A stretch of DNA of 64,000 bases, from the NCBI GenBank assembly GCA_012813795.1, contig GCA_012813795.1_4087.1, one strand, 5' to 3'. The notes under the pieces were generated by a model. The model ran no database searches. It had not been told where the DNA came from and saw only the letters and a program-made list of their open reading frames with translations. A program made the position numbers and the translations under genes. Numbering within the stretch: position 1 is the stretch's first letter; each line of letters starts with the position of its first letter. The stretch is from a phage. Positions 51,419 to 52,084 of this stretch are shown here, one piece after another.

Positions 51419-51725
51419 CTAATATTGCACTCACTATTTCAACAAGAACATCTCCGTGACATGATTTGGGCTTACAAAAGCACCCAAGACGCTTCCCAGC
51501 CAATTCAAGTAGTTCTTCGATAGTAACCTCACCATTATCAATTCTTTGGATAAGATACTCTCTGAACTTCTCAATCGACTCTTCTCGTGTCGGAACTATA
51601 AACTCTGCCTTTGTTTGTTTGTCATTAATGTGGGTAAATGGATTTCCCCATTTAGACCCACGACCAATATACACATCATATGGTTCTTTATATTTGTTAA
51701 CTACAATTGGTTTTAAGTCCATCAT
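51390..51725 (-). CDS. Conserved small protein with [12 protein letters not shown] motif (DUF4326-like, name from memory)
   Basis: 111 aa with CxC and CH motifs; family name is recalled, not searched. Confidence 0.4.
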
Positions 51726-52084
51726 AGACCTTTAGTAAAAGTACGATTGATTACATCATCTTGTTGTTCTTTTGTTAGTGAATTGAAACGAACTGCATAA
51801 CCACTAACACGAATTGTAAGTTGCGGATACTTTTCTGGATTATTTTGTGCATCAATGAGTTGTTCTTTAGATAGAACATTTACATTCAAGTGCTGACCAC
51901 CTTCAATATTCGGTGCGTGTTGAATTTCCACATCACGCAGTACCTCACCATCAAAAGTACTCAAAAGTACTTCATCATCTTCGGAAATGGTCTTTGATAC
52001 AATAATACGTGCAATATCATTTTCTATTAGCATGATAGTTCCACGGTGCTCACCAGACATGACTTGTTTACCTTGAATTGACAT
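51722..52084 (-). CDS. grcA: Autonomous glycyl radical cofactor (GrcA/YfiD-like; T4 Y06I-like)
   Basis: [11 protein letters not shown]...[36 protein letters not shown] is near-identical in pattern to the E. coli YfiD C-terminus, including the glycyl-radical RVSGY motif. Confidence 0.9.

Follow-up and report, generated by a model that had tools for sequence, protein, structure and literature searches.

A jumbo phage encodes, between the genes of an anaerobic ribonucleotide reductase (nrdD) and of its activase (nrdG), a small protein that ends like a glycyl radical enzyme, and this locus raises the question of which enzyme such a protein would serve, and by what mechanism. The window, meaning the whole 64,000-nucleotide stretch of DNA that was analysed, comes from an Asteriusvirus jumbo phage, and over a region of 3.5 kb it shares 98.8% identity with Escherichia phage A4, a phage of 355 kb whose host is E. 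coli LF82. A preliminary description had spoken of a distant T4-like relationship. The phage itself is RaK2-like and not T4-like, and what can be kept of this proposal is that its nrdD, nrdG and vs.6 genes are of the T4 type. The gene of interest, called grcA-like here, comprises the following features.

52090 to 52093, minus strand: Shine-Dalgarno sequence GGAG of the grcA-like gene, by direct reading of the sequence
51722 to 52084, minus strand: grcA-like coding sequence for an autonomous glycyl radical cofactor of the GrcA/YfiD/T4 vs.6 type, an ATG-to-TGA open reading frame of 120 residues plus stop
51911 to 52084, minus strand: N-terminal half (residues 1–58), homologous to T4 vs.6 and to the GrcA N-terminal region
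51725 to 51910, minus strand: C-terminal glycyl radical domain (residues 59–120)
51791 to 51811, minus strand: glycyl radical loop RVSGYAV (residues 92–98), placed by alignments
51800 to 51802, minus strand: GGT codon of Gly95

The start codon of the gene (52082–52084) is parted from the nrdD stop codon (52094–52096) by a 9-nt spacer, GGAGATATT (52085–52093), which contains the GGAG; the annotations of phages UE-S1 and Munch show a ribosome-binding site equivalent to it. There is thus no 4-nt overlap with the upstream neighbour, such as had initially been described. At the downstream end, a 4-nt overlap (ATGA) exists if the next gene, of the DUF4326 family, starts at the first of its two tandem ATGs, and it shrinks to a single nucleotide (TGATG) if the second one is used. 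This second ATG is the start chosen in the A4 annotation and the only one of the two present in the orthologue of phage 121Q. The location given as beside nrdD and nrdG is exact for nrdD, which lies directly upstream, but the 111-residue DUF4326 gene (51390–51725) stands before nrdG. The preliminary description was essentially right on the identity of the gene, and wrong on two such small positional details.

This identity could be assessed by several profile and sequence comparisons. The proposed YfiD/GrcA-type C-terminus, including the motif RVSGYAVRF, is present in the 120-residue protein, and the alignment and profile matches are far beyond chance. The Pfam family PF01228 (Gly_radical) is matched with 1.9e-17 and 64.1 bits, for a gathering cut-off of 22.2, and a search of the PDB sequences retrieves residues 669–758 of E. 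coli PflB (2.9e-30) and the NMR entry of YfiD, 6OWR (2.2e-29). Among NCBIfam models, TIGR04365 ("autonomous glycyl radical cofactor GrcA") ranks first (6e-37), the match covering residues 19–119; its 126.7 bits lie under the equivalog cut-off of 170. This shortfall was rejected as an argument against membership, since the biochemically validated T4 protein also misses the cut-off, with 151.1 bits, as do the proteins of RaK2 (135.8) and Munch (137.4), E. coli GrcA scoring 234. The cut-off is tuned to bacterial GrcA; it sets bacterial members apart from phage members and does not tell whether a protein belongs to the family.

The alignments lead to the same conclusion. The C-terminal region aligns without gaps with E. 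coli GrcA, T4 vs.6 and the PflB C-terminus, and Gly95 pairs with Gly102 of GrcA and Gly734 of PflB when GrcA, PflB, T4 vs.6 and NrdD are aligned together, so that the conserved glycine, whose loss in a careful alignment would have spoken against the assignment, is kept. Gly95 and the entire radical loop are also invariant in an alignment of 57 homologous sequences. Over the whole protein, the identity amounts to 61% with T4 vs.6, 53% with E. coli GrcA, 55% with the PflB C-terminus and about 20% with the C-terminal part of the NrdD that the phage itself encodes. Within the final 61 residues (60–120), it reaches 80.3% with PflB, 78.7% with GrcA and 80.3% with T4 vs.6, and residues 82–108, a run of 27 spanning Gly95/Gly734, are exactly those of E. 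coli PflB. The existence of a T4 homologue, stated at the outset, could be verified: it is vs.6 (NP_049730), annotated "autonomous glycyl radical cofactor GrcA", which we infer to be the protein known as Y06I. On its sequence, the phage protein is thus a clear member of the GrcA/YfiD/T4 Y06I group, and its C-terminal domain duplicates the fold of the YfiD/PFL glycyl radical domain. The N-terminal half has motifs in common with T4 vs.6 and GrcA, yet it is divergent (about 40% identical to T4, less to GrcA), and modelling predicts it to be folded as an SH3-like beta-barrel.

The protein is a standalone product of 14 kDa without the catalytic barrel of a glycyl radical enzyme, and it contains no cysteine; within PflB it matches residues 669–758 only. 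Two other identities were considered and rejected. A pyruvate formate-lyase (PFL) would have the catalytic barrel of about 760 residues with Cys418/Cys419, which is missing, and the PFL model TIGR01255 is matched with 91.5 bits for a cut-off of 994, over profile positions 657–743 only. The tail belonging to a ribonucleotide reductase of class III would show the four-cysteine Zn-ribbon and an NrdD-type loop (RVCGYLG or RVSGYLS), neither of which is found. The A4 orthologue, A4_491 (5023–5385 of the A4 record), differs by one residue (99.2% identity) and is annotated "pyruvate formate-lyase", a name also used in the records of K64-1, SE_PL and fHe-Yen9-04. This label is a misnomer for a GrcA-type spare part, because the protein corresponds to no more than about 90 residues at the end of PFL, without the catalytic barrel. 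In the PHROGs collection, the corresponding family, phrog_1209, is listed as "unknown function".

The gene and its surroundings form one compact transcription unit, in the order nrdD-grcA-DUF4326-nrdG-orf52, where all junctions are overlapping or at most 9 nt apart.

54036 to 54056, minus strand: terminator-like hairpin upstream of nrdD, ending the preceding unit
52094 to 53899, minus strand: nrdD, T4-type class III (anaerobic) ribonucleotide reductase with Zn-ribbon and glycyl loop RRVSGYLS (Pfam NRDD 543.6 bits; NF006732 766 bits, cut-off 657)
51390 to 51725, minus strand: DUF4326 gene, 111 residues, starting at 51725 or, more likely, at 51722 (Pfam PF14216 9.3e-25; DUF4326 in the A4 annotation)
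50939 to 51418, minus strand: nrdG, radical-SAM activase of NrdD (TIGR02491 200.8 bits, cut-off 126.1; Pfam Fer4_12 8.7e-53)
50794 to 50952, minus strand: open reading frame of 52 residues, last gene of the unit, conserved in RaK2 (ORF524) (phrog_3684 1.4e-17)
50761 to 50786, minus strand: intrinsic-terminator-like hairpin AAGCACCC-TTT-GGGTGCTT followed by TTTTTTA, in minus-strand reading, closing the unit

A TATAAT hexamer lies at 53957–53962, between the upstream hairpin and nrdD, with no clear -35 element. In a promoter scan, sigma-70-like sites were rarer than in shuffled controls, and none was convincing upstream of nrdD.

The phage NrdD matches T4 NrdD (1H78) with 560 bits and keeps the active-site motifs TNCC and PMGCRSFL. 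It covers positions 97–706 of the E. coli-type model and is devoid of the N-terminal ATP-cone, as is T4 NrdD. Its Zn-ribbon (CFEC...CPVC) precedes the glycyl loop, in which a serine (RVSGYLS) replaces the cysteine of E. coli and T4 (RVCGYLG). The 52-residue frame shares 14 nt with the end of nrdG and is kept in RaK2, Serratia phage BF and Yersinia phage fHe-Yen9-04. As for DUF4326, the annotation of the RaK2 orthologue notes a similarity to T4-like "nrdA.1", and a weak match is found to a PHROG labelled "NrdA-like"; the family seems to be recurrently linked to phage ribonucleotide reductase genes. It has been predicted to belong to the rhodanese-phosphatase superfamily and to act on ADP-ribose derivatives (PMC9503650), which does not obviously explain this link. 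Directly downstream of the unit, three adjoining minus-strand genes (44664–47432, 47416–48006 and 48017–50716) encode proteins of 922, 196 and 899 residues with a common C-terminal module (...KVSRF...GSAIP.SSG.P...G..W), the 922- and 899-residue ones being full-length paralogues (25% identical, E 6e-48). Given the "tail spike protein" of K64-1 at that position, the three products are probably fibre or spike proteins of the tail.

The order nrdD...grcA...nrdG is not restricted to this phage. It recurs in A4, ph0011 and UE-S1 (Asteriusvirus), in RaK2 (Alcyoneusvirus), in Salmonella phage Munch, and in fHe-Yen9-04 and Serratia phage BF (Eneladusvirus). A similar linkage in another order, nrdD-nrdG-vs.6, is seen in Aeromonas phage PX29, and in T4 and in a T5-like phage the gene lies elsewhere in the genome, unlinked to nrdD/nrdG. 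Homologues were detected by tblastn in 1585 phage records, among T4-like (vs.6), T5-like and RaK2-like jumbo phages, the T4-like vs.6 genes being often annotated "autonomous glycyl radical cofactor GrcA". The best 120 matches in a collection of 5.8 billion proteins are phage or unnamed metagenomic proteins, and within E. coli DNA it is grcA, not pflB, that matches best, with only 71.6% identity over 176 nt. A recent capture from the host was rejected on these two grounds, and the sequence comparisons indicate an old phage gene.

Within Asteriusvirus, the gene is present in few phages. At this locus, the insert of about 372 nt is carried only by A4, ph0011, UE-S1, TH47 and the window, and in 30 of about 34 Asteriusvirus records, 121Q and PBECO4 among them, nrdD is followed immediately by DUF4326. 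Positions 2745–2754 of the 121Q record are the counterpart of window positions 51722–52093, a clean presence/absence in the interval from the nrdD stop to the DUF4326 start. An apparent MAFFT pairing of the 3' end of 121Q nrdD with the RVSGY-coding part of grcA was discarded as an artefact of the common motif. Since outgroup genera have the gene at the same place, its loss in the 121Q lineage would be the parsimonious reading. Its absence at the locus in these 30 records also means that the gene is dispensable.

Where it is present, the gene is functional by its substitution pattern, which is one of purifying selection. Estimates of dN/dS by the Nei-Gojobori method on seven jumbo-phage orthologues range from 0.11 to 0.34 for the whole gene, from 0.05 to 0.17 for the radical domain and from 0.10 to 0.83 for the N-terminal half.

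What such a protein does has been described for its relatives. PMC8683613, which cites Wagner et al. 2001, gives YfiD and T4 Y06I as the sole spare parts validated for PFL that oxygen has cleaved, and both are activated by the PFL-activating enzyme, PFL-AE. Activated PFL is cleaved by oxygen at Gly734 and the spare part binds to the cleaved enzyme, an association that needs the N-terminal 60 residues of YfiD, on which efficient activation depends as well, and residues 696–733 of PFL (PMC8683613). PFL-AE is stated to put the radical on the spare part only inside the complex with cleaved PFL, upon which activity returns (PMC8683613). The heptapeptide RVSGYAV is a substrate of E. coli PFL-AE, and the ribonucleotide reductase loop RVCGYLG is not (PMC13450708). 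Both pflA and pflB are present in the host, E. coli, and it is from this and from the exact RVSGYAV loop that the role of YfiD/Y06I is assigned to the phage protein.

It is thus likely, on the strength of these sequence relationships, that the phage protein replaces the oxygen-broken radical tail of host PflB, is activated by PflA and so may feed formate to NrdD. Activated PflB, once cut by oxygen at Gly734, would lose its radical site. The 14-kDa phage protein would bind to the cleaved enzyme, its C-terminal 60 residues standing in for the lost glycyl radical domain, and host PflA (PFL-AE, a radical-SAM enzyme) would take a hydrogen from Gly95 in RVSGYAV, bringing PFL activity back. In a facultative anaerobe of the gut, acetyl-CoA/ATP and formate production could in this way be maintained without remaking an enzyme of 170 kDa, possibly at a time when host gene expression is shut down. 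The repair of oxygen-damaged glycyl radical enzymes, put forward in the preliminary description, is thus supported by homology, with a target that is likely narrower than was proposed. We infer that this target is host PflB and perhaps TdcE, not such enzymes generally or NrdD, that PflA is the activase, and that formate is the link to the neighbouring genes. All 5426 of 5426 E. coli genomes contain their own grcA and, the host having this copy, the benefit of a phage one is unproven.

The formate link deserves some comments. The phage NrdD is of the T4 type and presumably formate-dependent, T4 and E. coli NrdD both belonging to the formate-using NrdD1 subtype (PMC4493059), and a recent review considers that class III ribonucleotide reductase, where formate-dependent, may use up formate coming from PFL (PMC13450708). 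Formate from rescued PFL may therefore supply phage dNTP synthesis: because such an NrdD depends on formate and PFL is a source of it, keeping PFL alive would feed anaerobic dNTP synthesis. No explicit earlier statement of a phage GrcA/NrdD formate link was found in the literature searched, a 2006 paper going no further than that vs.6 "may play a role in nucleotide metabolism". Such a coupling is not general among phages, since T4 and T5-like phages have the gene unlinked to nrdD/nrdG.

Four other readings of the locus have to be weighed against repair of PflB through PflA. The one that survives best, though we judge it improbable, accepts host PFL as the repaired enzyme and has the radical installed by phage NrdG instead of PflA, which would make the module independent of host activase levels. 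The co-transcription of nrdG would fit this proposal, as would the direct overlap of the gene with nrdG in Munch and of nrdG with vs.6 in PX29; NrdG and PflA are moreover homologous single-domain radical-SAM activases, and the loop of the phage NrdD has the serine of PFL (RVSGY) and not the cysteine of the E. coli and T4 enzymes (RVCGY). However, activase specificity follows the sequence of the glycine loop and cross-reactivity is rare (PMC13450708). The loop found here is the exact PflA substrate, and T4 Y06I is activated by host PFL-AE (PMC8683613).

A second reading, which we regard as very unlikely, makes the protein a modulator or decoy, which would compete for PflA or dock on intact PflB/TdcE and thereby redirect fermentation, for example the formate/acetyl-CoA flux. 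It draws on the N-terminal half, which governs binding and not catalysis in YfiD (PMC8683613), and which is both divergent in the phage protein and predicted to be a folded beta-barrel. The radical glycine and its loop are, however, invariant in the 57 homologues, and the strong purifying selection on the radical domain would be expected of a protein that actively carries a radical; PFL activity is also restored by the validated homologues (PMC8683613).

Still less probable is a spare part for the tail of the phage's own NrdD, activated by NrdG. The gene shares one transcription unit with nrdD and nrdG, a linkage kept in Asteriusvirus, Alcyoneusvirus, Eneladusvirus and Munch and seen in PX29, and the NrdD loop RRVSGYLS has RVSGY in common with the protein; spare parts for other glycyl radical enzymes have also been speculated upon by the authors of PMC8683613. 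Against these points, an identity of about 20% to the NrdD C-terminus has to be compared with 80% to the PflB radical domain and its 27 consecutive identical residues, and the Zn-ribbon cysteines (CFEC...CPVC) are missing. The closest characterised relatives act on PFL, and in T4 and T5-like phages the gene lies apart from nrdD. This reading was rejected on sequence.

Lastly, the view that a captured pflB 3' end persists here as a non-functional remnant, to which the GenBank name "pyruvate formate-lyase" and the lack of the gene at this locus in most Asteriusvirus might lend some colour, has next to no probability and is in effect refuted by what is seen of selection and conservation, namely an intact reading frame with its own Shine-Dalgarno sequence, dN/dS values of 0.1–0.3, an occurrence in 1585 phage records of three lineages, an N-terminal half that is GrcA/vs.6-like and not PflB-like, and a best E. 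coli DNA match in grcA instead of pflB.

Repair of host PflB thus stays the preferred reading, and a bolder version of it can be sketched for the RaK2-like jumbo phages, which we put forward tentatively and would rather doubt than assert. The nrdD, grcA and nrdG genes might there form a dedicated anaerobic dNTP module in which PFL is kept for its formate, the reductant of the T4-type NrdD, NrdG possibly installing the radical and the SH3-like N-terminal half, specific to the phage and seemingly folded, perhaps serving to dock; grcA loss in most Asteriusvirus genomes might then mark lineages that no longer need microaerobic infection.

The family, its T4 member and the mechanism were already described in 2001, and near-identical jumbo-phage genes are already deposited and annotated. 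What this locus brings is the conserved nrdD-grcA-nrdG arrangement, which suggests a metabolic link between PFL repair, as a supply of formate, and anaerobic ribonucleotide reduction by the phage. The presence/absence of the gene within Asteriusvirus also provides natural isogenic-like pairs for its effect in microaerobic infection of the gut. Correcting the wrong "pyruvate formate-lyase" label on the closest relative in GenBank is, like these two points, of modest value.

The comparison with the known systems helps to delineate what is common and what is particular to the phage protein. With E. coli PflB (residues about 669–759; 1H16), it has the radical domain in common. The catalytic barrel and Cys418/Cys419 are absent, because of which it can be no formate-lyase by itself. 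Compared with E. coli GrcA/YfiD (P68066; 6OWR), it is 7 residues shorter at the N-terminus, and it has the PflB-like Asn82 and Lys105 where GrcA has His and Pro. The N-terminus of YfiD has been reported as disordered (PMC8683613), in contrast to the folded N-terminal half predicted here, and the two proteins may differ in their binding mode. T4 Y06I is likewise 120 residues long, with Gly95 in RVSGYAV and N-terminal motifs in common; however, its radical domain is 97% identical to that of E. coli GrcA, whereas that of the jumbo phage is about 80% identical to GrcA, PflB and T4 alike, and vs.6 belongs to the regB-denV region, a long way from nrdD/nrdG, unlike the present gene, which lies between the two. 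The closest likeness is found with the RaK2-like orthologues, namely A4_491, RaK2 gp014 ("vs.6"), Munch gp167 ("glycyl radical cofactor") and Serratia phage BF gp137, which are 67–99% identical, 120 residues long and all encoded between nrdD and nrdG; they differ in what is interposed, which is DUF4326 in the window and in RaK2, nothing in Munch, and genes including one for a DNA methyltransferase in Eneladusvirus.
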